Shown: piece after piece, positions 1,965-54,606 of the stretch
Numbering within the stretch: the first letter of the stretch is position 1
How the letters are laid out: each line of letters begins with the position of its first letter
Source of the DNA: Flavobacterium sp.
Lineage (GTDB): Bacteria > Bacteroidota > Bacteroidia > Flavobacteriales > Flavobacteriaceae
Reading direction: 5' to 3'
NCBI GenBank assembly: GCA_044378345.1
Contig: JBILXS010000010.1
Coordinates: 29,670 to 93,669 of the forward strand
DNA: 64,000 nt
Position numbers and translations under genes: made by a program
Notes under the pieces: generated by a model
Seen by the model: the letters and a program-made list of their open reading frames with translations, nothing else
Told to the model about the DNA's origin: nothing
Database searches by the model: none

Positions 1965-2037
1965 GTTGTCGGTTGGTTGTCGGTTGTCAGCTTGCGTTGC
2001 GCGTAACCGACAACTGATAACTGATAACCGACAACTG
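1965..2037. repeat. Inverted pair of GACAACC-type heptamer arrays filling the metH-metF spacer (empty cassette)
   Basis: gttgtcggttggttgtcggttgtcag, short spacer, then ccgacaa ctgataa ctgataa ccgacaa ctg. Confidence 0.9.
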
Positions 2038-2040
2038 TTC

Positions 2041-4758
2041 TTAATCTGCTATATTCGGGTTAAGCCATTTTGTAGCTTGTTCTGTACTGATGCTTCTTCG
2101 TTTGGCGTAATCGATGACCTGATCTTCTTTAATTTTTCCGAGACCGAAATATTTGCTCTCTGGATTTCCAAAATAATATCCCGAAACAGAAGACGCGGGC
2201 CACATTGCCATACTTTCTGTGAGTTTTACTCCAATGGCTTCTTCTACCTTCAAGATATTCCATATCGTAGGTTTCTCTAAATGGTCTGGACAAGCCGGAT
2301 ATCCTGGTGCTGGACGAATTCCTTTGTATTCTTCTTCTATTAAATCAACTTTATCTAAATTTTCATCTGTGGCATAACCCCAAATTTCTTTGCGCACTTT
2401 CTCATGTAAATATTCGGCAAATGCTTCCGCCAAACGATCCGCGAGTGCTTTGACCATAATGGAGTTGTAATCATCTAAATTTTTCTCAAATTCCGCTGCC
2501 CATTCGTCGACCCCAAAACCAGTTGTGACACAAAAGCATCCCAAATAATCTTGCTTTCCGGAATCTTTTGGAGCAACAAAATCAGCCAAAGCCATGTTGA
2601 AAGCGCCCTTCGTTTTTTGAGATTGTTGGCGGAGCGTTAAGAATTTGGTTGTCAGTTGTCGGTTGTCGGTTGTGAATTCTGTGACAACTTCAATGTCATC
2701 ATCGTTAATGGTATTGGCGGGGAAAATGCCATAAATTCCTTTAGCAGTGAATTTGTTTTCTTTCACAATTTGATCGAGCATTTCTTGTGCATCATTAAAT
2801 ACGGCTTTCGCTTGTTCACCTACAACCTCATCGGTCAGAATTGCTGGATATTTTCCGAACAATTCCCAAGTTCTAAAAAAAGGTGTCCAATCGATATAGG
2901 GAATCAACGTTTCAATATCAACATCTATAGTTCTAGACCCAATGAAGTTTGGCTTTTTAGGTGTAAAATTTTCCCAATCTAATTTTAATTTATTGAGTCG
3001 CGCTTGTTCGATGGTCAGGAAATTTTTATCTCGACTTCTGGTCAAATAACCTTCACGCAATTCGTCGTATTCGGATCGTATTGCTTTTGAATACATTAAT
3101 TTATCTGCATTCAATAAATTTCCTGCAACCGTAACAGCGCGCGACGCGTCATTCACATGCACCACAGTTTCTTTATATTCAGGTGCTATTTTCACTGCGG
3201 TATGTGCACGAGAAGTTGTCGCACCGCCAATCATGATTGGTATTTTGATATTAAGCTTATCCATTTCTTTCGCGAGATAAACCATCTCATCCAACGAAGG
3301 TGTAATCAAACCGCTTAAGCCAATAATATCTACGTTTTCTTTGATGGCCATTTCAATAATTCGCTCTGGTTGCACCATTACGCCCAAGTCGATAATTTCG
3401 TAATTGTTGCAACCGAGCACGACAGAAACAATATTTTTTCCAATATCATGAACATCGCCTTTTACGGTAGCCATCAGTATTTTGCCTGCGGAGGAAGATT
3501 TGCCGTCTTTTTGCGCTTCAATGAATGGCAACAAATACGCTACTGCTTTTTTCATGACGCGCGCCGATTTCACCACTTGAGGGAGAAACATTTTTCCTGA
3601 TCCGAATAAATCTCCAACGACGTTCATTCCTTCCATTAAGTTTACTTCTATGACTTCAATTGGGCTAGTAACAGAGAGCCGTGCTTCTTCAATATCAATT
3701 TCTATAAACTCGTCGATGCCTTTTACTAACGAATGTGTTAAACGCTCTTGGATTGATCCGGAACGCCATTCTTGAACCGCCTTTTCACTACTTTTAGTGT
3801 TACCTTTTATATTTTCAGCGAAATCGAGTAAGCGTTCGGTAGCATCTTCCCGTCTGTTGAGTAGAACATCTTCGACAAATTCCAGTAAATCTTTTGGAAT
3901 TTCATCATATACTTCAAGCATTTCGGGGTTAACAATTCCCATTGTCATTCCGTTTTTAATGGCGTGATACAAGAAAACCGAATGCATTGCTTCACGTACT
4001 TTATCATTTCCTCTAAAGGAAAAGGAGACATTGCTAACGCCGCCACTTACATGTGCATAAGGCAGATTTTCCTTAATCCATTTGGTGGCTCGGAAGAAAT
4101 CGAGTGCGTTTAATTTATGTTCGTCCATTCCAGTGGCGACAGGAAAAATGTTTGGATCGAAGATGATGTCTTCTGCTGCAAAACCAACTTCATCAACCAA
4201 AATATCATAAGAACGTTTGCAAATTTCTATACGTCTTTCGTAATTGTCTGCTTGTCCTTGTTCGTCGAAAGCCATTACGATCACAGCAGCGCCATATCGT
4301 TTGACCAATTTCGCATGGTGAATAAAAAGAGCTTCGCCTTCCTTTAGTGAAATAGAATTGACGACGCATTTTCCCTGAACTACTTTCAATCCGGCCTCGA
4401 TAATTTCCCACTTCGAGCTATCAATCATGACTGGAACTCGCGAAATGTCTGGTTCGGCCGCGATTAGATTCAAAAAAGTTGTCATGGCATGAACCCCATC
4501 GAGCATGCCTTCATCCATATTGACGTCGATGATTTGTGCACCGCCTTCTACTTGATCACGTGCCACAGAAAGCGCTTCATCATACCGTTCTTCTTTGATT
4601 AAACGAAGGAATTTACGAGAGCCCGTGACATTTGTTCTTTCACCAACATTGACAAAATTGGTTTCTGGAGTTACGATTAACGGTTCGAGACCTGAAAGCC
4701 GGAGATACTTCGTTGTCGGTTGTCGGTTGTCGGTTGTCGGCGTGACATCTTTAATCAT
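2041..4758 (-). CDS. metH: Cobalamin-dependent methionine synthase, pterin-binding, B12-binding and reactivation domains
   Basis: [18 protein letters not shown]12-binding motif, [12 protein letters not shown]; ATG overlaps the end of the four-helix-bundle gene. Confidence 0.97.
2647..2673. repeat. In-frame GACAACC heptamer array inside metH (encodes TTDNRQLTT)
   Basis: ggttgtc agttgtc ggttgtc ggttgt. Confidence 0.9.
4711..4740. repeat. (GTTGTCG)4 array, downstream arm of four-helix-bundle cassette, translated in the MetH N-terminus ([10 protein letters not shown])
   Basis: cgttgtcggttgtcggttgtcggttgtcgg. Confidence 0.95.
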
Positions 4759-5125
4759 TGAGTTTTCTGTAATAATTAATGAATCCGTTTAATATTCGTT
4801 TACATCGCTGCACGGTTTCAAATAGTGATTCGAAAATTTCTTTGGTAATATAATTTTGATCAAGTGCGATGAAAATTTGTGTTTCAACTTCATACAATGC
4901 ACCACGAGCAATATGTAGAAAATGTAAAGTATCCTTACTAGTACTTCGTCCGCAACCCTCGGCAATATTGGAAGGTATAGAAACAGCCGAACGTCTGATT
5001 TGATTTGTCAAACCGTAAAGTTCTTCTTTTGGAAAATTCCTCGAAACCTCATAAACATGATTCGTTAGCTTCCTGCATTCCTGCCAGACTTCCAAATCAG
5101 TGTACTCTTTTTTATTATCTTTCAT
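4751..5125 (-). CDS. Four helix bundle protein (TIGR02436 / 23S rRNA IVS protein family)
   Basis: [35 protein letters not shown] and [15 protein letters not shown] match the family pattern. Confidence 0.93.
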
Positions 5126-5142
5126 ATTTTGTTATAAAAAAA

Positions 5143-5205
5143 CTGACAACCGACAACCGACAACCGACAACCGACAACCATCAACCATCAACGAACAACC
5201 ATCAA
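5143..5205. repeat. Nine-unit heptamer array (CCGACAA/CCATCAA), upstream arm of four-helix-bundle cassette; overlaps the stop of metH N-terminal gene
   Basis: ctgacaa (ccgacaa)4 ccatcaa ccatcaa cgaacaa ccatcaa. Confidence 0.95.
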
Positions 5206-6189
5206 CTTCCTAGGCTTAAATTCTGAAGCAACTTCAGCAATCAATTTGATATGTTCTGGCGTTGTTCCGCAGCAGCCACCAATGATGTTAACTAGATTTT
5301 CCTTTAGATATTCTCGTATCAATTCCTGCATTTCTTGAGGCGTTTGGTCGTATTGTCCAAAAGCATTTGGCAATCCGGCGTTAGGATGTGCGGAAATATT
5401 TAAAGAGGTATTTCTAGCCAATCTTTTGAGGTACGGCTTTAGTTGATCTGCGCCTAAAGCACAATTGAAACCGACGCTTAACAAAGGAATATGGGAAATT
5501 GAAATGAGAAATGCTTCCACTGTTTGACCAGAAAGTGTTCGTCCAGAAGCATCTGTAATCGTTCCTGAAACCATAATGGGAATATCAATATTCCGTTCTT
5601 CTTTGACTTCTTCAATCGCAAACAAAGCTGCTTTGGCATTGAGTGTATCGAAAATAGTCTCCACCAGAAGCAGGTCGCAACCACCGTCGATTAACGCTTC
5701 TGCTTGTTGTTTGTAAGCGATTCTCAAATCATCGAAAGTAACAGCTCTAAAACCGGGATCATTGACATCGGGGCTCATGCTTGCAGTTCGGTTAGTTGGT
5801 CCAATAGAACCGGCAACGAAGCGGGGTTTGTTTGGATTTTTAGCGGTGAACTCATCGGCTACTTCACGGGCAATTTTGGCTGATTGGTAATTCAGTTCGT
5901 AAACTAGATTTTCTAGATGATAATCTGCTATTCCAATAGTGGTGCTAGAAAAGGTATTCGTTTCTATGATATCAGCACCTGCTTCGAAGTACTGCGCATG
6001 GACATCTCTTATGGCTTGTGGTTGCGTGATTGAAAGTAAATCGTTATTTCCTTTTAGAGAATGGGGAAAATCTTTAAATCGTTCGCCTCTGAAATCGGTT
6101 TCAGAGAAATTGTATCGTTGCAACATGGTTCCCATGGCGCCATCTAGGACGAGGATTCTATTTTGAATTTCTTGTTGAATTGTTGACAT
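5188..6189 (-). CDS. metH: Methionine synthase homocysteine-binding (Hcy S-methyltransferase) domain, separate polypeptide
   Basis: [23 protein letters not shown] and GGCCGT Zn ligands; start moved to ATG 6189 (MSTIQQEI). Confidence 0.95.
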
Positions 6190-6200
6190 GTTTTTTTGCT

Positions 6201-6223
6201 CGCAAAGGCGCCAAGACGCCAAG
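6201..6223. repeat. Short octamer tandem (cgcaaagg cgccaaga cgccaag) just upstream of the metH' start
   Basis: Three degenerate 8-nt units seen directly. Confidence 0.5.
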
Positions 6224-6242
6224 TGTTGTTATGAAATTGATT

Positions 6243-6340
6243 GCCCTAGCCCCGATAGCAGCAGTTATCCTTTTGTGCTGTAGTTCAGCGCAAAAGATAG
6301 TAGCGGATAGCGGGATTAGCTACTGAAATAAATTCAGCAT
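6243..6340 (+). repeat. Palindromic intergenic element, family A (REP/Flavo-1-like)
   Basis: gccctagccccgatagcagcagttatcc-[ttttgtgctg..cagcgcaaaa hairpin]-gatagtagcggatagcgggattagcta, followed by ctgaaataaattcagcat. Confidence 0.8.
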
Positions 6341-6390
6341 AAATCCTAAAAAATAAAATGTCATCAAAAAGTGCGAGGGAAATTCTCGTG

Positions 6391-6492
6391 GTTATCTGTC
6401 CAAGTTTTCGCTTGGTAGAATGTAGCACCTTCTTTAAGTTAAAGGGTTGCTAAGCTTTCAACGGGTCTAATCCCTCTGGCTTTCGTGATAAC
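6391..6492 (-). promoter_or_regulatory. SAM-I riboswitch aptamer
   Basis: Minus strand reads GTTATC..GAAAG..GAGGGA.TAGACCC..TGAA..AGCAACC...AAGGTGCTA...GATAAC; P1 GTTATC/GATAAC; upstream of metH operon. Confidence 0.9.
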
Positions 6493-6682
6493 AATCAATA
6501 AATTTAAGAACAGAGCAAAGTAATGCAATAGAAGTGGTTTTTGCAACCACTTTTAAAAAAAAATGCGATAACGTTATAGTGAGCGAGACTGCTTTGCAGT
6601 GAGAAGAAAGAAGCAAGACCGCTGCGCTGCAAGAAAAAACTCTAGGGTTTTCTCAGAGCGCTGCGGTCTTCTCTTTAGAATT

Positions 6683-7561: not shown

Positions 7562-7593
7562 TAGAAGAAGTTTTAAGCATTTCACAAATATTC

Positions 7594-7625
7594 AAAAAAA
7601 AACCTGATTCTTTTCAGAATCAGGT
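7594..7625 (-). terminator. Intrinsic terminator between the two T9SS paralogs
   Basis: acctgattc/gaatcaggt stem followed by a T run on the minus strand. Confidence 0.7.
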
Positions 7626-7646
7626 CTTCTTTTTATTGTAAAAAAA

Positions 7647-8665: not shown

Positions 8666-8688
8666 CATTCGAAAATAACGAGGAAAAA

Positions 8689-8747
8689 TTTGTACTGATT
8701 GCAACCTCTGACCTTAACCAATTAAGTGTCAAAAAAAATGCTAAAGC
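8689..8747 (+). promoter_or_regulatory. Candidate SAM-II-type riboswitch in metK leader
   Basis: ttgtacTGATTgcaac...gtgtcaaaaaaAAATGCTAAAgc resembles the SAM-II UGAUU...AAAUG-CUAAA core; located in the metK 5' leader. Confidence 0.5.
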
Positions 8748-8816
8748 AGAACTTCTCTCTTTTAGTTTGGTTGCGTTCGCCTATTATTTCCCATTAACAA
8801 TTAAAATTAAAGTATT

Positions 8817-10067
8817 ATGGCTTATTTATTTACGTCGGAATCAGTGAGTGAAGGACATCCAGACAAAGTAGCAGATCAAATTTCGGATGCATTAATTGAC
8901 AACTTTATGGCGTTCGATCCAAAATCGAAAGTGGCCTGTGAAACTTTGGTTACTACTGGCCAAGTAATTTTGGCGGGCGAAGTAAAATCAGACACCTATT
9001 TAGATGTTCAAAATATCGCAAGAGAGGTTATCAGAAAGATTGGCTACACGAAAAGCGAATATATGTTTGAAGCTGATTCTTGTGGTGTTCTTTCAGCTAT
9101 TCATGAGCAATCCTCAGACATCAATCAAGGTGTTGAAAGAGCCAACCCTGAAGAGCAAGGTGCAGGTGATCAGGGAATGATGTTCGGCTATGCAACAAAT
9201 GAAACGCAAAACTTTATGCCATTGGCGTTAGACCTCTCCCATGCCCTTTTGATTGAATTGGCGAATTTGAGAAGAGAAAATAATGAAATTACCTATTTAC
9301 GTCCAGATGCAAAATCGCAGGTGACACTAGAATACTCTGACGACAACAAGCCAGTGCGTATTGATGCTATTGTGATTTCTACGCAACATGATGATTTTGA
9401 TGAGGAAACGAAAATGTTGGCTAAAATTAATAGCGATTTAGTTTCGATATTGATTCCAAGAGTAAAAACAAAATATCCGGAATACGCGCATTTGTTTAAT
9501 GATAAAATACAATACCACATCAATCCAACCGGTAAATTTGTAATTGGTGGACCTCATGGCGATACTGGATTAACAGGAAGAAAAATCATTGTGGATACTT
9601 ATGGTGGAAAAGGGGCTCACGGTGGTGGCGCATTTTCTGGGAAAGACCCAAGTAAAGTAGATAGAAGTGCTGCTTATGCTACGCGTCACATTGCAAAGAA
9701 CTTAGTAGCTGCAGGTGTTGCCGATGAAATATTAGTACAGGTTTCCTATGCCATTGGCGTAGCCCAGCCGATGGGAATTTTTGTAGATACTTATGGAACT
9801 GCGAAGGTAAATATGACTAATGGTGAGATTGCGAAAAAAGTAGAAGCGATTTTTGATATGCGCCCTTATTTTATAGAGCAAAGATTAAAATTGAGAAATC
9901 CTATTTACAGCGAAACCGCAGCTTACGGACATATGGGAAGAACCCCCGAAACGGTTACAAAAAGTTTTAAAGCGCCAGGTGGTGCAGAAAAAACAATAAC
10001 TGTAGAATTGTTTACTTGGGAAAAATTAGACTACGTAGACAAAGTGAAAGCGGCGTTTGGTATTTAA
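8817..10067 (+). CDS. metK: S-adenosylmethionine synthetase
   Basis: [28 protein letters not shown]. Confidence 0.98.
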
Positions 10068-15382: not shown

Positions 15383-15395
15383 TCAAGTTGGGTTT

Positions 15396-15488
15396 TAGCC
15401 CAGATGGCAGCGGCATCCTTTTGTGGTGGCTTTCACCGCAAAAGATATAGCATACAGCTGGCTTAAGCTACTGAAATAAATTGAGGAT
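15396..15488 (+). repeat. Palindromic intergenic element, family A
   Basis: tagcccagatggcagcggcatcc-[ttttgtggtg..caccgcaaaa]-gatatagcatacagctggcttaagcta ctgaaataaattgagga. Confidence 0.8.
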
Positions 15489-15493: not shown

Positions 15494-17974
15494 CTAGAAA
15501 TAAAAACCAATAGCGGCTTTCACCGTAAACCGATTTGCTCCGGGCATTTCCAGATAATTTCCGCGCCACGAGAAATCGATCCGCAACACTTTGAAGATAT
15601 TCCCCACACCAGCACTGTATTCCCAGTAGAATTTTTCCGGAGCATTATATATCAATCCCGAATCGTTAAGCGCTATATTTTCGTCAGATACGGTTCCGTA
15701 AACTCCTCTGAACCCAACAATTTCTCGCCAATTTAACTTGCGCAAGAACGGAACTCGGGCAAATATTTTTCCCTGAAAATTATGAATCCATTGAAAAGTA
15801 GCATATTCGTCTGTGACAAATTCGTAGAAATCTAAATTATTGAAAGTGTTTTCAATCGTGAAATACGTTTGATTTCCTGGAACTACACTCAGCAAACCTA
15901 ACGGCACTTTTCCGTAAGTTTTTCCGACTTCGGTAATTAAGTTAGTCCTGCCTATTGCACCGATTACAATGGGCTGGTTATAGTAGATTTGGAATTTGTT
16001 GTATGAAAAATCTCCATTCATAAAACCTTTATAACCTCGGCTGTAATTGGCAAATACTTTAGTATATGGATTGTCAACTATATTTCGCTCTACGCCGTAT
16101 CCAACGGTTTTTCTTTTGGGCGTAAAATCGACTTGTAAGCTCAATTCTGGCTGAATGACATCGCTTTTTGTTTTTGTAAATGTGTTGTCAGTAAAATAAT
16201 CCAAACTAAAAGTCGGAGATGCAGAAATTAGCGTTCGGTAGGTAAATCCAGCCTGTAGCGTCAAATTCTTTATTGGCTCTATTTCCAATTTTAAAGCGGT
16301 CAAATTGATTTTGGTTAGCTTTCCATTTGTACCGGTGGTCAGTAAAGCAGATGAAGCAAAACTTCTGCCTAAGATATCGCTTGTTGTTGTGAGACTGGCA
16401 CCTATTTGTTCTACATCGCGGCGGTTTCCTCCCGAAATAATAATTCTATTTTTCTTCTCCACCATCCATTTTCCAGAAAGTCCATATTTGACTACATCAT
16501 CTTTAAATCCGTAGGCGAGATAACCTTCCAAACGCCATGGATCATTTGAATCGAAATAGGTACGCAATCCTGCCCGCAGTCGAATTCCTTCCACATCGTT
16601 GTTTCCGATTGTAGAATAAATGGAACCGTACTCGACATTTCCTAGTGGAACGTAACCACTTCCGATAATCGAAACGAGATCGTAAAGCCGCTTGAACTTC
16701 TTAACCGTTTTCAATGTATCAAGCATTTTATATACGCCTAACTCGTCTTTCGAAAGCTTTTCAAAACGGTTTTCAGCCCAATACTCGTCTGGCTTTAAAT
16801 AAACAGATTCATCATTATAATTTACCTCTTGCTTGTAGAAATCGATTGGCTTTTCCTTATTAAATTGATGATTTCTAAAGTAAGTCGTTCGCTTCCCGTA
16901 AACACCTTTTGATTTTTCTTTCTTGTTAAGCGCAAAATCGGACATCATATAATCTTTGGTGAGGAGAAAAATAGAGTCGTTCATGACCTCGAACTCTTGC
17001 TCGATGTAAATGTCTTTCACCCAGTTGATATTAGCACTTTTTGTCACCGCCATATTGATATTTTTGATAGCCCAAGTGGTATCGTTTACCCAAAAATCGC
17101 CTTTAAAGGTCAACTCGTTTTTTCGTCTAGGATAGAAGACAATGTTATAACACAATTTTTTATCGATATAAGCGGTGTCAGTTAAGACGTAGTTGTAGAC
17201 GTCGATTCCGGTGCGGGACAATGGACTGGTAAAACTCTTATCAAAAAAAGTCACATAATTATTGTAGATATTGTAATCAGAATAGAGGTCTTTGATAAAG
17301 GCGATCAATTGTTGGTTGGTTTCAAAACCTGAATTCTTGTTGGCTTTCAGAATTTCTTTGACTTTTTTCTGCACATTATCTCCATAGACATCCGACAAAG
17401 CTTCATTGATAAAAATCGGCAAATACGTTTTTCCGGTAATTTTTGAGGTGTCGACTTGATTGAAAATAAACTCCATGCCCTTAAAGATCTTTCTCTTCAT
17501 AAAAGCACTGTCGATGGAATTCATATCAAATTCTACTTTCTCATACTTTTCCATTTGATACTGGTTAAACATATTCAAACCGTTCTTTCGCTTGCGCTCC
17601 CAAATTTTGCGAAGAATGTCAAGTGCTGGATTATTTTTTTTGGAGGTCTTTCCGGAATAAACAACTACTTCTTTGAGTTTTTGTCCGTCGCTGAGCGTGA
17701 CTTTAAAATTGTAGTTGACTTCTTTGGTCAGCGGCACTTCTTTGGTGTCAAAACCCATAAATGAAACTTGCAGGGTTTTGTATGTTTTTTCAGATTCAAG
17801 ATAAAACTTACCATCTTCGTTCGTCACCGTTCCTTGTGTAGAATTTTTGAAGACAACATTAGCATAAGGAATAGGCTGATTGGTATTATCTACAACAATG
17901 CCGCTCACTTTGGTTTGAGCCAATATTTTTGGTGATAAAATGATCAATAATAATAAAAATAAACTCTTTTTCAT
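15494..17974 (-). CDS. DUF5686 and carboxypeptidase-regulatory-like domain outer-membrane protein
   Basis: N-terminal VSGIVVD...PIPYANV...GTVTNEDGKF domain, C-terminal beta-barrel ending in F; start moved to ATG 17974. Confidence 0.85.
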   Translation of the reverse strand: MKKSLFLLLLIILSPKILAQTKVSGIVVDNTNQPIPYANVVFKNSTQGTVTNEDGKFYLESEKTYKTLQVSFMGFDTKEVPLTKEVNYNFKVTLSDGQKLKEVVVYSGKTSKKNNPALDILRKIWERKRKNGLNMFNQYQMEKYEKVEFDMNSIDSAFMKRKIFKGMEFIFNQVDTSKITGKTYLPIFINEALSDVYGDNVQKKVKEILKANKNSGFETNQQLIAFIKDLYSDYNIYNNYVTFFDKSFTSPLSRTGIDVYNYVLTDTAYIDKKLCYNIVFYPRRKNELTFKGDFWVNDTTWAIKNINMAVTKSANINWVKDIYIEQEFEVMNDSIFLLTKDYMMSDFALNKKEKSKGVYGKRTTYFRNHQFNKEKPIDFYKQEVNYNDESVYLKPDEYWAENRFEKLSKDELGVYKMLDTLKTVKKFKRLYDLVSIIGSGYVPLGNVEYGSIYSTIGNNDVEGIRLRAGLRTYFDSNDPWRLEGYLAYGFKDDVVKYGLSGKWMVEKKNRIIISGGNRRDVEQIGASLTTTSDILGRSFASSALLTTGTNGKLTKINLTALKLEIEPIKNLTLQAGFTYRTLISASPTFSLDYFTDNTFTKTKSDVIQPELSLQVDFTPKRKTVGYGVERNIVDNPYTKVFANYSRGYKGFMNGDFSYNKFQIYYNQPIVIGAIGRTNLITEVGKTYGKVPLGLLSVVPGNQTYFTIENTFNNLDFYEFVTDEYATFQWIHNFQGKIFARVPFLRKLNWREIVGFRGVYGTVSDENIALNDSGLIYNAPEKFYWEYSAGVGNIFKVLRIDFSWRGNYLEMPGANRFTVKAAIGFYF

Positions 17975-18043
17975 AGGACAAAAAAACTCCATCAAAAATA
18001 ACTTGATGAAGTTTCAAATATAAGGTTTTCAATTTGATTATTG

Positions 18044-18107
18044 GACTGTAAGATTATAAGATTCTGCAGTCTTAAAGTCTTGTGATCTTACAATCTTATG
18101 ATCTTAT
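18044..18107. repeat. Inverted pair of AAGATTGT-type octamer arrays overlapping the pdhB stop
   Basis: gactgtaa gattataa gatt ctgc agtcttaa agtcttgt gatcttac aatcttat gatcttat. Confidence 0.8.
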
Positions 18108-19081
18108 TTATACATCACTTTTTTAACCGCCTTAATCACATCCTCCGAATTCGGCAACCATTCCTTCAATAAAGTTGGAGAATAAGGTGCTGGCGTATCC
18201 GCAGTTGTAATCCTCTGAATAGGAGCATCCAAGAAATCGAAAGCGCGTTCCTGTACAATATACGTTATTTCAGAAGCCACACTAGCAAAAGGCCAAGCTT
18301 CTTCTAAAACCACAAGTCTGTTGGTTTTCTTTACTGAATTCAAAATAGCATCATAATCCATTGGGCGCACCGTCCGCAAGTCGATTATTTCACATGAAAT
18401 TCCCTCATTTGCCAAAGCATCTGCAGCAATATGTGCTTCTTTGATAATTTTGCCAAATGACACAATCGTTACATCAGTTCCTTCTCTTTTAATATCAGCA
18501 ACTCCTAATGGAATCGTATAATCTCCTTCCGGCACTTCTCCTTTGTCGCCATACATCTGCTCAGACTCCATGAAAATTACTGGGTCGTTGTCGCGAATAG
18601 CAGCTTTTAGCAAACCCTTTGCGTCATAAACGGTTGATGGCACTACAACCTTCAATCCAGGCGTGTTCGCAAACCAATTCTCAAATGCCTGAGAGTGTGT
18701 TGCTCCCAACTGTCCTGCAGAAGCAGTTGGCCCACGAAAAACCATCGGCATCGGAAATTGTCCCGCTGACATTTGACGCATTTTTGCTGCGTTGTTAATA
18801 ATCTGATCAATTCCTACCAACGAAAAGTTAAACGTCATATATTCTACTATTGGTCGACAGCCATTCATCGCTGAACCCACTGCAATCCCAGCAAAACCAA
18901 GCTCTGCAATTGGTGTATCAATGACTCTTTTTGGTCCGAATTCGTCTAACATTCCTTTCGATGCTTTGTATGCACCGTTATATTCCGCAACTTCCTCGCC
19001 CATCAAATACACCGATTCGTCACGGCGCATTTCTTCACTCATCGCCTCACAAATTGCTTCTCTAAATTGTATCGTTCTCAT
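18104..19081 (-). CDS. pdhB: Pyruvate dehydrogenase E1 beta subunit
   Basis: GEEVAEYNGAYK, DTPIAE, HSQ motifs. Confidence 0.96.
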   Translation of the reverse strand: MRTIQFREAICEAMSEEMRRDESVYLMGEEVAEYNGAYKASKGMLDEFGPKRVIDTPIAELGFAGIAVGSAMNGCRPIVEYMTFNFSLVGIDQIINNAAKMRQMSAGQFPMPMVFRGPTASAGQLGATHSQAFENWFANTPGLKVVVPSTVYDAKGLLKAAIRDNDPVIFMESEQMYGDKGEVPEGDYTIPLGVADIKREGTDVTIVSFGKIIKEAHIAADALANEGISCEIIDLRTVRPMDYDAILNSVKKTNRLVVLEEAWPFASVASEITYIVQERAFDFLDAPIQRITTADTPAPYSPTLLKEWLPNSEDVIKAVKKVMYK

Positions 19082-19154: not shown

Positions 19155-19257
19155 AGGAGCTTTTTCCCGCTATTCGCTATATCTTTTTTGCTTGTCAGTC
19201 CGAGCGCAGTCGAGAAGCTTCAACAAGCAAAAAAGGATGCCGCTGCTATCGGGGCTA
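19155..19257 (-). repeat. Palindromic intergenic element, family A, with a nested REP-like half site
   Basis: Reverse of tagccccgatagcagcggcatcc-[ttttttgcttg...caagcaaaaaa]-gatatagcgaatagcggg; loop holds gtcagtccgagcgcagtcgagaagc. Confidence 0.8.
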
Positions 19258-19361
19258 CGAAATCGTTGTAATAGCGAAAAATAGGATGCAAGCATATTAT
19301 ATAATTCAAATTAATATTATAATTTTGCGCTATCTTTTTTTAAACAAACAATCATTTAGAT

Positions 19362-20108: not shown

Positions 20109-20120
20109 TTGTGCAGGTTC

Positions 20121-20182
20121 GCGTGAGGGATTGCAGCAAGTATCGCGTACTGCGAAAAGCCCGACCCGCAGGGACACGCCCA
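20121..20182 (-). repeat. Palindromic intergenic element, family B
   Basis: Reverse of gggcgtgtccctgcgggtcgggct...ctgcaatccctcacgc; matches 50283..50369. Confidence 0.75.
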
Positions 20183-20218
20183 TACAAATGAACGATTAAA
20201 CAAATAAACATTAAAAAA

Positions 20219-21184
20219 ATGTCGATATTAATATACGCAGAATCTGCAGACGGAAAATTTAAGAAAGTAGCTTTTGAATTGGCGTCCTACGCTAAGAAAG
20301 TGGCCACCGATATGGGAACAACGGTTACCGCTGTTTCGGTTAACGCTGGTGATGTTTCAGAATTGTCAAAATATGGCGTTGATAAAGTATTAAAAATCAG
20401 CAACGACAAACTCAATGGCTTTACGGCAAAAGCGTATGCATCGGTAATTCGGCAAGCGGCTCAGAAAGAAAACGCTCAATTAGTATTGCTGTCTTCTACT
20501 ACCGACAGCCTCTACTTGGCACCTTTAGTAGCAGTTGCATTGAACGCCGGTTTCGCGTCGAACGTCGTTGGTTTACCAGTTAGTGTGTCGCCATTTCAAG
20601 TAAAAAGAACCGCATTTTCAAATAAAGCATTCAATATTACGGAGATCAATACGGAAGTGAAAGTACTTGGTTTGGCAAAAAACTCCTATGGGATTTTTGA
20701 AAATGGGTCTTCCATGTCGCAGGAAGATTTTACTCCCTCGATGGATGATGCTGATTTTGGCGTTAAAGTACAATCGGTTGAAAAATCATCTGGAAAAGTA
20801 ACAATTGCTGATGCTGATATTGTAGTTTCTGCCGGTCGTGGAATGAAAGGTCCTGAGAACTGGGGAATGATCGAAGAATTAGCCGCAACTTTGGGCGCTG
20901 CAACTGCTTGTTCAAAACCAGTATCTGATTTGGGTTGGAGACCTCACGGTGAACATGTGGGCCAAACAGGAAAACCGGTAGCAACGAATTTGTATATTGC
21001 AGTTGGTATTTCTGGAGCGATTCAACATATCGCCGGAATCAACTCTTCAAAGGTAAAAGTGGTAATCAATACCGATGCGGAAGCACCATTTTTTAAGGTT
21101 GCAGACTATGGTGTGGTTGGAGATGCTTTTGAAATTGTTCCGAAATTGATTGAAAAATTTAAAGCGTTTAAAGCTCAAAACTAA
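20219..21184 (+). CDS. etfA: Electron transfer flavoprotein alpha subunit
   Basis: VGQTGK, GISGAIQH, INTDAEAPFF. Confidence 0.96.
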   Translation: MSILIYAESADGKFKKVAFELASYAKKVATDMGTTVTAVSVNAGDVSELSKYGVDKVLKISNDKLNGFTAKAYASVIRQAAQKENAQLVLLSSTTDSLYLAPLVAVALNAGFASNVVGLPVSVSPFQVKRTAFSNKAFNITEINTEVKVLGLAKNSYGIFENGSSMSQEDFTPSMDDADFGVKVQSVEKSSGKVTIADADIVVSAGRGMKGPENWGMIEELAATLGAATACSKPVSDLGWRPHGEHVGQTGKPVATNLYIAVGISGAIQHIAGINSSKVKVVINTDAEAPFFKVADYGVVGDAFEIVPKLIEKFKAFKAQN

Positions 21185-21307: not shown

Positions 21308-21934
21308 ATGAGCTTAGTAAAATTAACAATAAAAGGGATTTCATACAGTCAAACTCAAAACGGTGCGTACGCTTTAATCCTCAACGAATTAGATGGCGAG
21401 CGCAAATTGCCAATTGTTATTGGAGCTTTCGAAGCACAGTCAATCGCTATTGCTTTAGAAAAAGAAATTAAACCACCACGTCCGTTGACCCATGATTTGT
21501 TTAAGAACTTTGCAGAGCGATTTGATATTGTTGTAAAGCAAGTCATCATACACAAATTAGTAGACGGTGTATTTTATTCCAGTATTATTTGCGAAAGAGA
21601 TAAAATTGAAGAAATTATCGATGCGAGAACCTCTGACGCGATCGCTTTGGCATTGCGTTTTTCTGCGCCCATTTTCACCTACAAAAATATACTTGACAAA
21701 GCTGGAATTTATTTGAAAGGCAGTAATTTGGAGGCGGCAAATGAGGAAGAAGGATTGGACGGTATACTTTCGACCCCGGACACCTTTGGAATGGAAGAAA
21801 GCAATCAGTCTGGTGAAACTTACAGCAAACAAAGTATGTCAGAGCTGTATGAACTTTTGGAAGGCGCGGTCCGTGATGAAGATTATGAAAAAGCCGCGAA
21901 AATAAGAGACGAGATTTCGAAACGAGAAGCGTAA
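21308..21934 (+). CDS. Bifunctional nuclease family protein (DUF151) with C-terminal UVR coiled coil
   Basis: LPIVIGAFEA, RPLTHDL, DARTSDAIALA, EDYEKAAKIRD. Confidence 0.92.
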   Translation: MSLVKLTIKGISYSQTQNGAYALILNELDGERKLPIVIGAFEAQSIAIALEKEIKPPRPLTHDLFKNFAERFDIVVKQVIIHKLVDGVFYSSIICERDKIEEIIDARTSDAIALALRFSAPIFTYKNILDKAGIYLKGSNLEAANEEEGLDGILSTPDTFGMEESNQSGETYSKQSMSELYELLEGAVRDEDYEKAAKIRDEISKREA

Positions 21935-21940
21935 AAGGGA

Positions 21941-21975
21941 TTTAGGGTCACAGGCGCAAGGTGCAAGGTTCAAAG
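21941..21975. repeat. Degenerate nnnAAGG heptamer array, upstream arm of second four-helix-bundle cassette
   Basis: tttaggg tcacagg cgcaagg tgcaagg ttcaaag. Confidence 0.65.
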
Positions 21976-22032
21976 TAATAAATAAGTAGATTACTTTTTT
22001 TTGATTATAAGCCAATATTTTAAATACAAGCC

Positions 22033-22391
22033 ATGAGAAATTTTAAAGAACTTGAAGTCTAGAAAGAAGGTAGAATTCTTTCAAAAAACATCTATCTACT
22101 TACGAAAACGTTACCAGATGATGAGAAATTTGGATTAATCTCACAAATTAAAAGATGTGTAATTTCAATTCCCGCCAATATAGCTGAAGGTGCTGCTAAA
22201 AATTCACAGAAGGATTTTGTTCGGTTTCGTCAAATCAGTTTAGGATCTTGCTTTGAATTAGAAAGGCATCTAATTTTATGCTGGATCTAGAAATAATAAA
22301 TAATTCGGAAACAATAGGAAATCTAGAGAATATTCAACAATTGCAAAAGAAAATTTATTCTTTAATAAAATACGTCAGCACAAAAATCTAA
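22033..22391 (+). pseudogene. Four helix bundle protein pseudogene
   Basis: Manual translation MRNFKELEV*KEG...EKFGLISQIKRCVISIPANIAEG...SLGSCFELE; TAG at 22060 (conserved W expected) and a 1-nt frameshift near 22283; C-terminus DLEII...QKKIYSLIKYVSTKI* in the shifted frame. Confidence 0.88.
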
Positions 22392-22428
22392 AACCCTATA
22401 CCTTTCACCTTAGAACTTTTACCATAAG
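22386..22428. repeat. Degenerate CCTTnnn heptamer array, downstream arm, just before thyA start
   Basis: ccctata cctttca ccttaga actttta ccataag; complementary in sense to 21941..21975. Confidence 0.6.
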
Positions 22429-22430: not shown

Positions 22431-23255
22431 ATGAAACAATACCACGACTTAGTAAAACACGTACTACAAAACGGCACTCAAAAAGGAGACCGAACAGGAA
22501 CAGGAACTAAAAGCGTTTTCGGTTATCAAATGCGTTTTGATTTGAGCGAAGGTTTTCCCATGGTAACTACGAAAAAACTGCACCTCAAGTCGATTGTTTA
22601 TGAATTGCTTTGGTTCTTAAAAGGCGAAACCAATATTGGCTACTTGAATGAAAACGGCGTTAAAATTTGGGATGAATGGGCCGATGCAGACGGGAATTTA
22701 GGTCCCGTTTACGGTCACCAATGGCGCAACTGGAACAGTGAAAATATCGATCAGATTTCGGAATTAATCGAAACTTTAAAAACAAATCCGAACAGTCGCC
22801 GCATGTTGATTTCTGCTTGGAATCCATCGGTGTTACCAGATACTTCTAAATCTTTTGCAGAAAATGTAGCCAATGGAAAAGTCGCTTTACCGCCCTGTCA
22901 TGCTTTTTTCCAATTTTATGTAGCCGACGGAAAATTATCTTGTCAACTGTACCAGCGGTCGGCTGATATCTTTTTAGGGGTTCCGTTCAATATCGCTTCG
23001 TACGCACTTTTGGTATTGATGATTGCACAAGTTTGCGATTTACAGCCGGGTGAATTCATCCATACTTTTGGTGATGCACATATTTATAATAATCATTTTG
23101 AACAATTAGAATTGCAATTGTCTCGTGACCCGAAACCATTGCCAAAAATGATTTTGAATCCAGCAGTAAAAAACATCTTCGACTTTACTTTTGAAGATTT
23201 TACGTTGGAAGGCTATGAACCGCATCCACATATTAAAGGTGTGGTGGCGGTTTAA
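22431..23255 (+). CDS. thyA: Thymidylate synthase
   Basis: DRTGTGT, GPVYG.QWR, ALPPCH, YQRSAD.FLGVPFN. Confidence 0.98.
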
Positions 23256-29775: not shown

Positions 29776-29860
29776 TAGCTATTTCCTGCTCTGCGCTATA
29801 TCTTTTTATTCTGAAAAAAGTTCAGAATAAAAAGGATGCCGCTTCCATCAGGGCTAGGGC
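29776..29860 (-). repeat. Palindromic intergenic element, family A
   Basis: Reverse of gccctagccctgatggaagcggcatcc-[tttttattctgaa..ttcagaataaaaa]-gatatagcgcagagcaggaaatagcta. Confidence 0.85.
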
Positions 29861-47122: not shown

Positions 47123-47154
47123 AACAAAAAAGTCTCTAAACTTAGAGACTTTTT

Positions 47155-48982: not shown

Positions 48983-49048
48983 AAACGAAAGGCGCTTCTA
49001 AGGCGTCTTTTGCTTTTAATCATTTTTAAAAACCTCTAAAAGTATCGT

Positions 49049-50236: not shown

Positions 50237-50282
50237 AAAACCATACGCCTCAAGTTTACTTGAGGCTCTTTTTTATAAATTT

Positions 50283-50369
50283 GGGCGTGACCACAAGGGT
50301 CGGGCTTTGCTTTGCAATCTTTTGTTTTTAAAGAAAAAACAAAAGGATTTTCACTGCAATCCCTCACGC
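50283..50369 (+). repeat. Palindromic intergenic element, family B
   Basis: gggcgtgaccacaagggtcgggct...atc[ttttgttttt..aaaaaacaaaa]ggat...ctgcaatccctcacgc. Confidence 0.78.
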
Positions 50370-50390
50370 AAACCAGCATAAAAAACAACT

Positions 50391-51557
50391 ATGAAATACA
50401 AAATACTACTCCTCGGCTCCGGTGAACTTGGCAAAGAATTCGTCATCGCAGCACAACGAATCGGCCAGACCATCATCGCAGTAGATAGCTACGAAAATGC
50501 ACCTGCCATGCAAGTTGCCGATGGTTTTGAAGTCATCAATATGCTCGACGGTAACGCTTTAGACCGCATCGTAGCCAAACACCAACCCGATTTCATCGTT
50601 CCCGAAATCGAAGCCATTCGAACGGAGCGCTTTTACGATTATGAAAAACAAGGAATAACAGTTGTGCCATCTGCAAAAGCCGCCAATTTCACCATGAATA
50701 GAAAAGCAATACGCGACCTCGCAGCCATAGAATTGGGTTTGCGAACTGCAAATTATCGCTATGCCACGACAGCCGCTGAGTTGCAAAAAGCGGTGAGCGA
50801 AATCGGCATGCCGTGTGTAGTAAAACCGCTTATGAGTTCATCTGGTAAAGGACAATCAACAATAAGAACAGAAAGCGATATCGAGAAGGCATGGCAATAC
50901 GCCGTGGAAGGTTCACGTGGCGATGTAGTTGAAGTCATCGTAGAAGCCTTTGTTCATTTCAATTCTGAAATCACGCTATTGACCGTCACCCAAAATGGAA
51001 ATCCTACCATGTTCTGTGCTCCTATTGGTCATCGACAAGAACGTGGCGATTATCAAGAAAGCTGGCAACCTGCACAGATTTCTAATGAAGCACTAAACGA
51101 AGCAAAAGAAATGGCGGCAAAAGTTACTCAAGCGTTAGGTGGCGCTGGACTATTTGGTGTCGAATTTTTTTTAGCAGATGATGGCGTTTATTTCTCTGAA
51201 TTATCACCTCGTCCACACGATACTGGGATGGTAACACTAGCAGGAACGCAAAACTTCAACGAATTCGAATTGCATCTCCGGGCCATCTTAAGTTTGCCAA
51301 TATTTGAAATTACGTTAGAAAAAGTAGGCGCCAGCGCGGTTATTTTATCCTCAGAAAATTCAAATAACCCAACGTTCTCTGGACTAGAAAAAATTAGCGC
51401 TTTACCACAAACTGATTTTCGTATATTTGGCAAACCAACTTCGCGACCTTACAGAAGAATGGGAGTTGCATTAACATATGATACTGTTGATTCTCCTATT
51501 GAAAATGTAATCAATGCAGCGAAGAAAGCAGCTAGTTTAGTAACCGTAAATCCATAA
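50391..51557 (+). CDS. purT: Formate-dependent phosphoribosylglycinamide formyltransferase
   Basis: [37 protein letters not shown]. Confidence 0.97.
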
Positions 51558-51561
51558 CGAT

Positions 51562-51903
51562 ATGAAAAATGTTTTTTTATTTTTATTCCTATTTGCCTGT
51601 GTTGCAATAAATGCGCAGGACAAGTCTAAAGCTCAGATCGTAGAAGCTTCCTGCGGCCAGTGCAAATTCGGAATGAAAGGCAAAAGTGGTTGTGATTTGG
51701 CTGTTCGAATTGATGGCAAATCCTATTTTGTTGACGGGGAAGACATCAACAAACATGGCGATGCACATGCAAAAGATGGCTTCTGCTCTGCAATCAGAAA
51801 AGCGGAAGTAGTCGGAGAAGTCAAAGAAGATCGTTTCGTAGCAACTTCTTTTATGCTTTTGCCTGTTGAGCAGCACGACGATCATAAAGGGCACAATCAT
51901 TAA
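51562..51903 (+). CDS. Exported Cys/His-rich small protein (DUF6370-like)
   Basis: Signal peptide, SCGQC, GCDLAV, HGDAH...FC. Confidence 0.72.
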   Translation: MKNVFLFLFLFACVAINAQDKSKAQIVEASCGQCKFGMKGKSGCDLAVRIDGKSYFVDGEDINKHGDAHAKDGFCSAIRKAEVVGEVKEDRFVATSFMLLPVEQHDDHKGHNH

Positions 51904-52075
51904 AATACAAGCGGATTAATTTCTGCTTTTTTTGACTTCAAATTTCACTTTCTATAACATGAGAACGCACTTTTTGAAATAGTAGTAGTGTCATTCAAAA
52001 CATTTCAAATCACATTTCTTTGTCTTCAGAATAAGAAACGTTATTCTTATCCAAAAATGAAATAAAAAATTATAT

Positions 52076-52792
52076 ATGAAAAATACCGTCTTACACAAAG
52101 CCAACACGCGCGGACATGCGGATCATGGTTGGCTCAACGCACACCATACTTTTAGTTTTGCTAGTTATTACGATCCGAATCGCGTTCAGTTTGGCGTTTT
52201 GAGAGTCTTAAACGATGATATTGTTGCAGCAGGAATGGGCTTCGGCACGCATCCCCACGATAACATGGAAATCATCACAATTCCTCTCGAAGGTGACCTA
52301 GCACATAAAGACAGCATGGGAAATACGGAAACCATCAAATTTGGTGATGTGCAGGTCATGAGTGCTGGGACTGGAATTCAACATTCGGAATTCAATCCGA
52401 ATCACGACAAACGAACCAATTTATTACAGATTTGGATATTTCCGAAAGAAAGAAATGTAGTTCCGCGTTACCAACAAATTACGCTTGAAACTTCAGATCG
52501 CCATAATCAATTTCAACAAATTCTTTCGCCCAATTCCGATGATGATGGCGTTTGGATTCATCAAGATGCGTGGTTTCACATGGGCAATTTAGATGCTGGA
52601 ACAACAGTAAAATATGAGCGAAAATTGGATGGCAATGGCTTATATATTTTTGTAATCAAAGGCAATGTAAAAGTTGACGGGCAACTACTTGAACAACGCG
52701 ATGGCCTTGGAATTACTGACTTCAACGAAGTGACTTTTGAAGCATCTTCAGATGCAGAGCTATTGTTGATGGAGGTTCCCATGAATGTTTAA
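52076..52792 (+). CDS. Pirin family protein
   Basis: HPHDNMEI, QVMSAGTGIQHSE, LLQIWI. Confidence 0.93.
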   Translation: MKNTVLHKANTRGHADHGWLNAHHTFSFASYYDPNRVQFGVLRVLNDDIVAAGMGFGTHPHDNMEIITIPLEGDLAHKDSMGNTETIKFGDVQVMSAGTGIQHSEFNPNHDKRTNLLQIWIFPKERNVVPRYQQITLETSDRHNQFQQILSPNSDDDGVWIHQDAWFHMGNLDAGTTVKYERKLDGNGLYIFVIKGNVKVDGQLLEQRDGLGITDFNEVTFEASSDAELLLMEVPMNV

Positions 52793-52845
52793 ATCAATAT
52801 CTAACAATTGAATTGTCGAAAATGAACTCCTATTAAATTCCCAAA

Positions 52846-53373
52846 ATGAAAAAAATTATTGCCTTTGCAGGTTCTTCAAGCAAACAATCTATCAACAAAC
52901 AGTTGGTAACCTTTACCTCGACTTTATTTGAAAATTCTGAAAGTGAAATTATCGACTTAAATGAGTACGAAATGCCAATCTATTCTGCTGACCGTGAACA
53001 AGAAAACGGAATTCCACAATTGGCCATCGACTTTTATAATAAATTGGGTTCAGCGGATTTGATTATCATTTCCCTAGCGGAACACAACGGCGCCTATTCC
53101 TCGGCTTTTAAGAACATTTTCGATTGGACTTCGCGTTACAACAGCAAACTATTTCAACAAAAACCAATGCTATTGATGGCAACTTCTCCCGGTCCAAGAG
53201 GTGGATTAGGTGTTTTAGAATTGGCAATAGACCGTTTTCCACGTCATGATGCAAATATAGTTGCAACTTTTTCATTGCCGAGTTTTCTGGATAATTTTGA
53301 TGCCTCGCTTGGTATTACAAATGAAATATTGAAAATCGAATTGCAATCAATTGTAAAAGATATTGTATTGTAA
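52846..53373 (+). CDS. NADPH-dependent FMN reductase
   Basis: AFAGSSS..SIN, EHNG.YS.AFKN, TSPG.RGG. Confidence 0.9.
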   Translation: MKKIIAFAGSSSKQSINKQLVTFTSTLFENSESEIIDLNEYEMPIYSADREQENGIPQLAIDFYNKLGSADLIIISLAEHNGAYSSAFKNIFDWTSRYNSKLFQQKPMLLMATSPGPRGGLGVLELAIDRFPRHDANIVATFSLPSFLDNFDASLGITNEILKIELQSIVKDIVL

Positions 53374-53459
53374 TTAAAACACTATTTTTGCTTTTTAAAC
53401 TTTGAAATAAAACGCAACTATTCAGCATTGATCGGATGTTGAAATAAAATTAGTATTAG

Positions 53460-54332
53460 ATGAAAGCATACGTTTTTCCTGGGCAAGGAGCTCAATTTAC
53501 CGGAATGGGCAAAGATTTATACGAAACTTCAACTTTGGCCAAAGATCTATTTGAAAAAGCCAATGATATTCTTGGATTTCGCATTACTGATATTATGTTT
53601 GAGGGAACCACAGAGCAATTGAAAGAAACTAATGTTACCCAACCTGCTGTTTTTTTACATTCCGTGATATTAGCCAAAACATTAGAAAATTTCAAACCTG
53701 AGATGGTCGCAGGACATTCTTTGGGTGAGTTTTCTGCCTTGGTTGCCAACGGTGCTTTGTCTTTTGAAGATGGATTGAAATTGGTTTCCCAACGGGCGCA
53801 GGCCATGCAAAAAGCTTGTGAAATTAAACCCTCTACCATGGCTGCCGTTTTAGGATTAGAAGACAATATCGTGGAAGAAGTTTGTGAAACTATTGACGGA
53901 ATAGTGGTGGCAGCAAACTACAATTGCCCGGGACAATTGGTTATTTCGGGTGAATTTTCTGCAGTTGGAAAAGCTTGTGAAGCTATGAAAGAAGCTGGAG
54001 CCAAACGCGCTCTGATATTACCCGTTGGAGGTGCTTTTCATTCACCAATGATGGAGCCCGCAAGAGAGGAATTGGCAGCAGCTATAGAAGCGACAACCTT
54101 TTCAACTCCGATTTGCCCAGTGTATCAAAATGTGACTGCAAGTGCGGTTTCTGATCCTAATGAAATTAAAAGAAACCTGATTACGCAATTGACTGCTCCG
54201 GTGCGATGGACGCAATCTGTTCAACAAATGATTACCGATGGTGCTACTTCGTTTACAGAAGTTGGACCAGGAAAAGTGTTGGTTGGATTGGTGAATAAGA
54301 TTAATAGAGAAGTGGAAACAATCAGCGCGTAG
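53460..54332 (+). CDS. fabD: Malonyl-CoA:ACP transacylase
   Basis: FPGQGAQ, GHSLGE, GAFHS. Confidence 0.97.
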   Translation: MKAYVFPGQGAQFTGMGKDLYETSTLAKDLFEKANDILGFRITDIMFEGTTEQLKETNVTQPAVFLHSVILAKTLENFKPEMVAGHSLGEFSALVANGALSFEDGLKLVSQRAQAMQKACEIKPSTMAAVLGLEDNIVEEVCETIDGIVVAANYNCPGQLVISGEFSAVGKACEAMKEAGAKRALILPVGGAFHSPMMEPAREELAAAIEATTFSTPICPVYQNVTASAVSDPNEIKRNLITQLTAPVRWTQSVQQMITDGATSFTEVGPGKVLVGLVNKINREVETISA

Positions 54333-54340
54333 TTGATTAA

Positions 54341-54396
54341 AAGATTGTAAGACTGTAAGACTGCAAGACTGCAAGATTGTAAGATTGTAAGATAAC
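54341..54396. repeat. Seven-unit AAGATTGT/AAGACTGC octamer array after fabD stop
   Basis: aagattgt aagactgt aagactgc aagactgc aagattgt aagattgt aagataac. Confidence 0.9.
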
Positions 54397-54535
54397 AATA
54401 CAAGAAAAAAAGAAGCCGGCTCAGAACTAAAAAATCACAAAATTCGTTGCGAATTCTATATTAATATTTGATTTGTATTCCAATTATAAAGACTAAATCG
54501 GGATTTTCTGAGAATATTCTGTTAATGAAAAAAAC

Positions 54536-54573
54536 AAAAGGGGGAATCTCATAGTTTTGAGACTCCCTCTTTT
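54536..54573. terminator. Bidirectional terminator between fabD and galE
   Basis: aaaagggggaatctca...tgagactccctctttt. Confidence 0.7.
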
Positions 54574-54574
54574 C

Positions 54575-54606
54575 CATCTCATAATCTTTCCGTCTTGTGG
54601 TCTTAT
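54575..54606. repeat. Degenerate complementary octamer array after galE stop
   Basis: catctcat aatctttc cgtcttgt ggtcttat. Confidence 0.55.

Follow-up and report, generated by a model that had tools for sequence, protein, structure and literature searches.

Inverted tandem-repeat cassettes with small passenger genes in operon spacers of Flavobacterium: candidate relatives of 23S rRNA intervening sequences

It has been reported that an intervening sequence (IVS) in the 23S rRNA of Coxiella burnetii carries a PF05635-family gene in the loop of a 28-bp stem, together with tandem GACAGAT heptamers, and that RNase III cuts in this stem (PMC4990558). Genes of this four-helix-bundle (FHB) family, PF05635/TIGR02436, have also been noted inside cas operons, where they are unexplained (PMC3936711). 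Tandem heptamers of Xanthomonas and Nostoc (GGGAATC/GGGGAYT) are gene-less, have been read as G-quadruplexes and follow a positional rule, with the G-rich sense strand at most 50 nt past stops and the antisense strand at most 50 nt before starts (PMC4692102). The present analysis concerns a 64,000-nt stretch of a Flavobacterium sp. genome (GenBank assembly GCA_044378345.1, contig JBILXS010000010.1, positions 29,670 to 93,669 of the forward strand; hereafter the window), in which inverted arrays of 7-8-nt words, here called arms, frame small FHB genes at operon junctions. It extends to the complete draft genome (2.68 Mb, 23 contigs, 36% GC, 99.99% complete) and to 40 further genomes of the genus, one per species (labels G0xx). 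We give a somewhat better than even chance, roughly 55%, to the reading that these units are IVS-like passenger cassettes, built like the 23S rRNA IVSs that bear an open reading frame (ORF) and lodged in spacers between co-transcribed protein genes. Literature searches found no published description of such cassettes in operon spacers.

The general plan of the unit, namely a word array, a short leader, a small ORF and the reverse-complement array, can be followed in the metH operon on the window's minus strand, where the genes were identified, as elsewhere in the window, with Pfam profiles. In operon sense the order is metH-N (5188-6222, the homocysteine-methyltransferase part of MetH), 5' arm, FHB gene, 3' arm and metH-C (2041-4758, the pterin/B12/activation part). 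The cargo gene (4751-5125) is intact and encodes 124 aa (PF05635, E 1e-40; TIGR02436, E 1.9e-38), the closest solved structure to its product being 2GSC, XCC0516. The 5' arm (5141-5206, [GTTGATG/GTTGTCG]n, otherwise reading [AACCGAC]n) begins within the last metH-N codons and provides the metH-N TGA stop, and the 3' arm (4712-4740) is [CGACAAC]4 in operon sense and [GTTGTCG]4 on the other strand. The arms are complementary over 29 nt at 100%; when joined they fold at -65.9 kcal/mol (z -9.2), and the proposal that they could pair in several registers was borne out by at least five. The ATG of metH-C (4758) overlaps the FHB stop (ATGATTAA) and is the sole usable metH-C start; it lies upstream of the 3' arm, on the loop side of the stem, and translation through the 3' arm gives MetH-C an N-terminal extension. 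The same layout of start and arm is present in the orthologous metH cassette of G031 and probably in that of G047. Because the metH-C start lies inside the loop, cleavage of the stem would separate the start codon from metH-C.

A SAM (S-adenosylmethionine, S-box) riboswitch at 6389-6494 (-) heads the whole series of metH-N, cassette, metH-C, hairpin and metF (1001-1957, -). The hairpin in question (1965-2037, -) is gene-less, is made of the same word family as the metH cassette and occupies the entire metH-C/metF spacer, from stop to start, with a predicted RNA fold of -32.5 kcal/mol (z -7.3). Two further arrays stand in this operon: a solo array of a GxxExxY-type word (6201-6223, -; CGCAAAGG/CGCCAAGA on the plus strand) at the metH-N start, downstream of the riboswitch, and an in-frame array, [GACAACC]3.9 (2647-2673, -), inside the MetH activation domain, which encodes TTDNRQLTT. 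This peptide is nearly identical to the translated 3' arm at the MetH-C N-terminus.

Six-frame searches of the genome recovered 17 cargo loci, of which 11 carry FHB genes and six carry genes of the GxxExxY family (PF13366, PD-(D/E)XK_3; TIGR04256). All 17 cargo genes are framed by inverted arrays of 7-8-nt words that differ at nearly every locus, so the claim that one architecture recurs with different repeat words holds for the window and for the genome, and in all 17 cassettes the 5' arm sits at or just past the stop of the upstream gene, with the 3' arm placed shortly ahead of, or within, the start of the downstream gene. All 17 are also co-oriented with both neighbouring genes. A strict arm score was passed by nine of the 17 cargo genes and by 21 of 483 small control genes, most of the passing controls being AT-rich chance matches. 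Among the relatives, arms were found at all 30 FHB loci sampled and at most of the 24 readable GxxExxY loci, thereby upholding the predicted tie between arrays and both gene families, and in 31 of 53 cassettes the 5' arm found its single best partner in its cognate 3' arm. In three species (L095/G007, L109/G036, L112/G040) FHB cassettes lie between groES and groEL, an essential and highly expressed operon. The GxxExxY proteins match PF13366, a PD-(D/E)XK nuclease family, over their full length, and a D...E-x-K motif can be read by eye in their sequence. A leader motif, TATAC(A)AGCCA(TG), was seen by inspection between the 5' arm and the cargo start in nine of the 17 cassettes and in both cargo families (for example at window 22005-22035 and at genome positions C6:24770-24790 and C8:49340-49370); it was rejected as a defining feature, having been chosen post hoc and being matched as a regular expression (TATAC(A)AGCCA) in only 4 of 51 cassettes of relatives compared with 1% of all genes.

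Compared with the 23S rRNA IVSs of Coxiella burnetii and Leptospira (PMC4990558), the cassettes share a long terminal-inverted-repeat stem whose loop holds a PF05635-family ORF, tandem heptamers in the stem region, whose copy number varies among strains in the IVSs, and a position within a host transcript. They differ in lying in protein-operon spacers and coding ends instead of rRNA helices (9, 25 or 45), in having a second cargo family, GxxExxY, on the same chassis and in being accompanied by many gene-less copies. All 17 cassettes lie between protein genes, although the 23S gene is unassembled in this draft, so that a copy in rRNA would be missed. The genome has an RNase III gene, and RNase III excision, which has been shown for the Coxiella IVS, would be harmful at the metH cassette, as it would remove the start codon.

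The orthologous junctions of relatives provide filled and empty alleles, as had been anticipated, and also decayed and fused ones, at metH, at BFN-thyA and at a third junction on contig C16. At the metH-N/metH-C junction an FHB cassette of a common word family is present in G000, G031 and G047, two species have an empty TAATG overlap, and metH is fused to one gene in at least two relatives (L015, L022; open frames of 1248 and 1175 aa), with a third possible case at a contig end; the remaining relatives have other hairpins or unrelated inserts. In most of the genus MetH is divided between its homocysteine domain and its pterin domain, and the point of division is a hotspot of cassettes, of hairpins and of unrelated inserts. 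In some relatives (L002, L003, L008, L010) the junction holds a conserved gene of ~140 aa for an apparently membrane-anchored protein, followed on its 3' side by a structured element (GCGTGAGGGATAGAAGTGAAAAGCCC...CACGCCC) and then by a solo [CTTAGnAn] array directly before metH-C; an element resembling this structured one also occurs at window 20120-20185.

At the second junction, on the plus strand of the window, the BFN/DUF151 gene (21308-21934) is followed after its stop by a decayed 5' arm [nnCAAGG]n (21937-21975), an FHB (PF05635) pseudogene with in-frame stops (22033-22390), a decayed 3' arm [CCTTnnn]n (22390-22422) that ends 8 nt upstream of the thyA ATG, and thyA itself (22431-23255). 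The pseudogene and its AAGG/CCTT arms had thus been recognised correctly; the arms, by comparison, fold no better than shuffles (z -0.35). The pseudogene is orthologous to an intact gene of G043 at the equivalent junction, where a complete cassette aligns with the window copy through arms, leader and ORF at 58-64% nucleotide identity, the flanks being 70-76% identical. The window copy is a decay intermediate. In most other species the BFN-thyA junction is taken by solo arrays, by unrelated genes or by gene-less hairpins whose words are quite different.

The C16 junction exists in 12 cassette alleles, nine copies of one conserved [AAGAnnn] hairpin, which in these nine species shows five compensatory pairs, and eight other states. 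These states require 8 changes on a tree built from the flanking proteins, compared with a mean of 9.5 for shuffled labels, i.e. they fit it no better than shuffled labels, and cassette and hairpin look like old alternative alleles that recombination in the conserved flanks, as the simplest route, may have redistributed among species. In general, cassettes and gene-less hairpins behave as alternative alleles of a given junction, scattered among species. The suggestion that empty hairpins are cassettes that lost their cargo is given up for most empties: the empty hairpins share no words with the cassette that occupies the equivalent junction in other species, and with no words in common most of them are not simply that cassette minus its cargo.

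Relocation is documented by one pair of cassettes, one of them in G013 at gmk-nadD and the other in G035 at an unrelated junction; their proteins are 85% identical, and their DNA homology begins with the 5' array and ends with the 3' array. The 5' arm of the G035 copy (L111:1850-2080) has grown to ~190 nt of [TAGTGATAAGTAAT]/[TAGTGAT] units and its 3' arm measures ~40 nt, so arm lengths can be very unequal. Below ~60% protein identity, non-syntenic cassettes show no arm similarity. Arms and cargo pass on and relocate as a single piece, and arm words, which are specific to the cargo family, drift fast while the two arms of a unit stay complementary. Turnover would proceed mostly through recombination in the conserved flanking genes, the colonisation of a new spacer being a rare event.

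The nature of the force that keeps the arms complementary can be approached through their mismatches, as selection on an RNA stem in the sense strand would leave mostly G·U and few A·C mismatches. In 61 cassettes with aligned arms, however, sense-strand G·U mismatches numbered 80 compared with 94 A·C, and in 68 co-directional hairpins there were 148 G·U pairs in sense compared with 170 in antisense, the two folds being equally stable, with the sense fold winning in 31 cases and the antisense fold in 37. Complementarity is nevertheless actively kept: arm words co-vary across orthologous cassettes at one junction (CTAAG/CTTAG versus CAAAG/CTTTG). From strand-symmetric mismatches and co-varying arms we infer a DNA-level process or strict Watson-Crick selection, and arm complementarity looks to be maintained at the DNA level, not by selection of RNA stems; the same symmetry and the position of the metH-C start in the loop speak against the looping-out or processing of RNA as the maintaining force. 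Slippage within arrays, combined with template switching or inter-arm conversion, might keep the arms complementary; the alternative is selection that favours strict Watson-Crick pairing. The cassettes, which are in sense orientation relative to the host operon, are presumably transcribed with it, and the long stem would then also form in the transcript, as in the rRNA IVSs, and shield the operon from the insert. Cutting of the stems by RNase III is possible but would not be general. As to the cargo proteins, they probably bind nucleic acid carrying their own words or, as regards GxxExxY, cut it.

Tandem arrays of this type extend far beyond the cargo loci. A scan with Tandem Repeats Finder (TRF) and a simple ORF-based gene map (heuristic gene calls, 89.5% coding) yielded 425 arrays of period 6-10 in the intergenic 10.5% of the DNA compared with 650 in coding DNA, and among spacer arrays periods 7 and 8 (167 and 143) prevailed over periods 6 and 9 (19 and 40). 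Spacers with a period-7/8 array numbered 225, compared with 55-75 in first-order Markov shuffles of the genome; at a TRF score of at least 40 the figures were 96 spacers and 3, and at 50 or more 45 and 0. The 302 arrays of the genome include 143 distinct canonical words, exact words having been used for grouping after single linkage at one mismatch fused nearly all of them into two blobs; word families mapped to cargo within this one genome were indistinguishable from random placement. When reverse-complement arrays within 60 nt are merged into one hairpin locus, 119 arrays with such a partner form 91 gene-less hairpin loci, to which many solo arrays are added. The genome-wide array and hairpin architecture is real and statistically solid. 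In the window itself about 6 of ~45 spacers hold period-7/8 arrays of this kind, so that the term window-wide, used in the original prediction, is fair but modest.

The arrays also have a strong compositional polarity. Among period-7/8 arrays within 40 nt of gene ends, those near stops have more G than C in gene sense in 76 cases compared with 20, and those near starts have more C than G in 81 compared with 11. The G-rich arm comes first in 38 hairpins compared with 9 in co-directional spacers, in 19 arrays compared with 3 in convergent spacers and, more weakly, in 22 arrays compared with 14 in divergent spacers. An inverted repeat that reads G-rich-first on one strand does so on the other strand as well, and paired-arm polarity is thus uninformative on transcription; as a test of transcription, being unchanged by reverse complementation, it was dropped. 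The link to transcription is the orientation of the cargo, in all 17 cassettes, and not the polarity of the arms. Arrays that abut starts contain 6% G, and 84 of 106 lack ATG, GTG or TTG, while arrays after stops contain 11 stop trinucleotides per 100 nt. A plausible reason for the G-poor arm being the one next to the start codon is that Bacteroidota leaders have to be poor in G and to contain no start codons.

Several observations weigh against the reading of the units as IVS-like passengers. There are far more gene-less hairpins (~90 loci) than cargo genes (17); the hairpins have other words at shared junctions, and they may be an independent host feature that the cassettes merely exploit. 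The relocation of a cassette was seen in a single case, between species; neither the ends of the G013/G035 homology nor the comparison with empty metH alleles showed a target-site duplication; no transposase was found linked to the cassettes, although no systematic search was made, and no relocation enzyme was identified. The flank tree at C16, weakly resolved over 270 columns, has well-supported branches that force at least four changes of cassette presence or absence. RNA co-transcription and in vivo folding of the cassettes are only inferred, and the start-codon argument does not explain the G-first rule in convergent spacers. Finally, the cargo-specific words have to be read with caution: GxxExxY arms use YRCARRK words (CGCAAAG, CACAGAG, CGCAGAT), and at least three of these were present in 16 of 28 GxxExxY cassettes compared with 0 of 40 FHB cassettes, but the p-value of this pattern is overstated, because it was defined after inspection of the data and the genomes sampled are related to one another. 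The association would fit arms that travel with their cargo, or recognition by the cargo protein.

The excess of hairpins over cargo, of about 5:1, is what would be expected if tandem-word hairpins were a REP-like (repetitive extragenic palindromic) spacer feature of the host, serving as mRNA 3'-end protector, processing site or translational insulator, and FHB and GxxExxY genes were secondary riders in hairpin loops. This is unlikely in our view, but it accounts well for the [AAGAnnn] hairpin conserved with compensatory pairs at C16 and for whole spacers filled by hairpins from stop to start, and an identical positional rule has been published for the gene-less GGGAATC heptamers (PMC4692102). 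It accounts less well for the homology of cassettes that stops exactly at the arms, for arms that move with the cargo and for words that are specific to a cargo family. Furthermore, the arms lack the wobble signature of RNA-stem selection, and close relatives do without a hairpin at equivalent junctions, as in the TAATG overlap at metH.

A different explanation would make the cargo the active partner. In a protein-plus-repeat system of the REP/RAYT (REP-associated tyrosine transposase) or Ssn/SRM kind, the cargo protein would recognise single-stranded DNA or hairpins of its own words, with GxxExxY cutting them, and would generate, spread or maintain the copies that lack a gene, acting in trans and possibly with effects on recombination or DNA uptake. 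Like REP elements and their REPIN pairs with RAYTs (PMC3116915), the present repeats are palindromic spacer elements, mostly gene-less, of which a few inverted copies flank a small gene; unlike them, their cargo belongs to PF05635 or PF13366 and not to the Y1 HUH transposases, and they are tandem arrays of variable words instead of one conserved REP per genome. The likeness to Ssn/SRM is that hairpin repeats stand on either side of a small gene and are also dispersed genome-wide and gene-less, which is the pattern that identified Ssn (PMC11893778), whereas Ssn is a GIY-YIG protein and the cassettes, known from genes alone, combine a four-helix bundle or a PD-(D/E)XK protein with tandem-word repeats. 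The full-length PF13366 match of GxxExxY and its D...E-x-K motif agree with a cutting function, the strand-symmetric mismatch spectrum fits a DNA substrate, and GxxExxY-type words occur at ~20 gene-less loci of this genome, several FHB word families having gene-less copies likewise. We nevertheless regard this explanation as quite improbable. No catalytic activity is known for the FHB family, nearly all FHB paralogues have words of their own, arms are unrelated in the non-syntenic FHB pairs below 60% identity, and abundant word families, namely AACCTAC, AATTATC and AAAATCTT, have no cargo gene in this genome. In addition, no movement within a genome was seen.

It is most unlikely that the arrays are contingency loci of simple sequence or G-quadruplex elements, in line with proposals for the Xanthomonas and Nostoc heptamers, and have no special tie to small genes: tandem 7-8-mers are indeed slippage-prone, as the long G035 arm illustrates, and the published G-rich heptamers obey the same positional rule, but words such as GTTGTCG, AAGATTGT, TAATTAA and CGCAAAG have no G-tracts or GGG runs, which rules out the G-quadruplex part, and the arrays occur as complementary pairs with a complete cargo association. 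The resemblance to these heptamers, and to the short tandemly repeated repetitive (STRR) sequences, lies in tandem 7-mers between co-directional genes, in the shared positional rule and in frequent convergent inverted pairs, while the words considered here, besides lacking G-tracts, are locus-specific and frame two gene families. STRR heptamers of heterocystous cyanobacteria were reportedly described by Mazel et al. in 1990.

Other readings were discarded. An intrinsic terminator does not fit arms that are followed by no T-run (U-run), or metH elements that stand inside a SAM-riboswitch operon whose distal genes are needed. The FHB protein resembles the Avd protein of diversity-generating retroelements (DGRs) as a four-helix bundle with weak profile similarity (PF22296, 26.5 bits), but the genome has no reverse transcriptase (PF00078) and the Avd equivalog scores 24.6 bits compared with a cut-off of 80. 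Neither cargo matched PADLOC as an anti-phage defence gene, and a search of 50,697 phage records returned no FHB homologue. Nostoc and Calothrix, the classic organisms for heptamer repeats, are the source of most plasmid-borne FHB homologues. The FHB gene of pCC7120alpha from Nostoc sp. PCC 7120 (L144, 3776-4126) has a [CTCTGCC]n array immediately 3'; upstream, the end of a putative transposase gene abuts it and no partner arm is left.

The reading as IVS-like passengers can be widened, tentatively and at odds well below even, to a single undescribed class of mobile elements, in which FHB and GxxExxY proteins would recognise their own words, gene-less derivatives would be the intergenic 7-8-nt repeats of many bacteria (flavobacterial, Xanthomonas GGGAATC, cyanobacterial STRR) and the 23S IVSs would be the same element in rRNA. 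The PF05635 "23S rRNA IVS protein"/Avd-like family, which ranks among the larger families without a known function, the GxxExxY nuclease-fold family and the excess of intergenic 7-8-nt repeats have each been described alone and left unexplained, and they are here parts of one design. Concrete test cases are available inside essential operons, at metH-N/metH-C, groES/groEL and thyA. Word recognition by the cargo, if true, would provide a function for both families and a new kind of small genetic element; without it, operon spacer structure in Flavobacteriia is still determined to a major extent by these hairpins, which go unannotated.

The named genes and repeat arms were found by Pfam and by the array search at every locus listed in the original prediction, including those that carry no cargo. 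In the spacer between pdhB (18104-19081, -) and the DUF5686 gene (15494-17995, -) a gene-less hairpin [TAAGATnn]n/[nnATCTTA]n (18040-18107, -) is of a weaker kind (z -3.5). The convergent genes fabD (53460-54332, +) and galE (54603-55616, -) are each followed by [AAGAnnnn]n: an arm [AAGATTGT]6.6 (54341-54393, +) starts 9 nt past the fabD stop, and the reverse-complement arm (54574-54611, +) overlaps the galE stop. These mutually reverse-complementary arms give a joined fold of z -5.3 and enclose ~180 nt that hold a terminator-like hairpin. A solo G-poor array (20184-20220, +) stands directly upstream of a start codon at 20219. The window contains, in addition, a second and unrelated family of dispersed structured repeats, the Flavo-1 RNA motif (RF01705), with five spacer copies (6244-6321, 15393-15468, 19159-19260, 29778-29859 and 50294-50383), and a SAM-II riboswitch at 8674-8754 (+), upstream of the gene at 8817.

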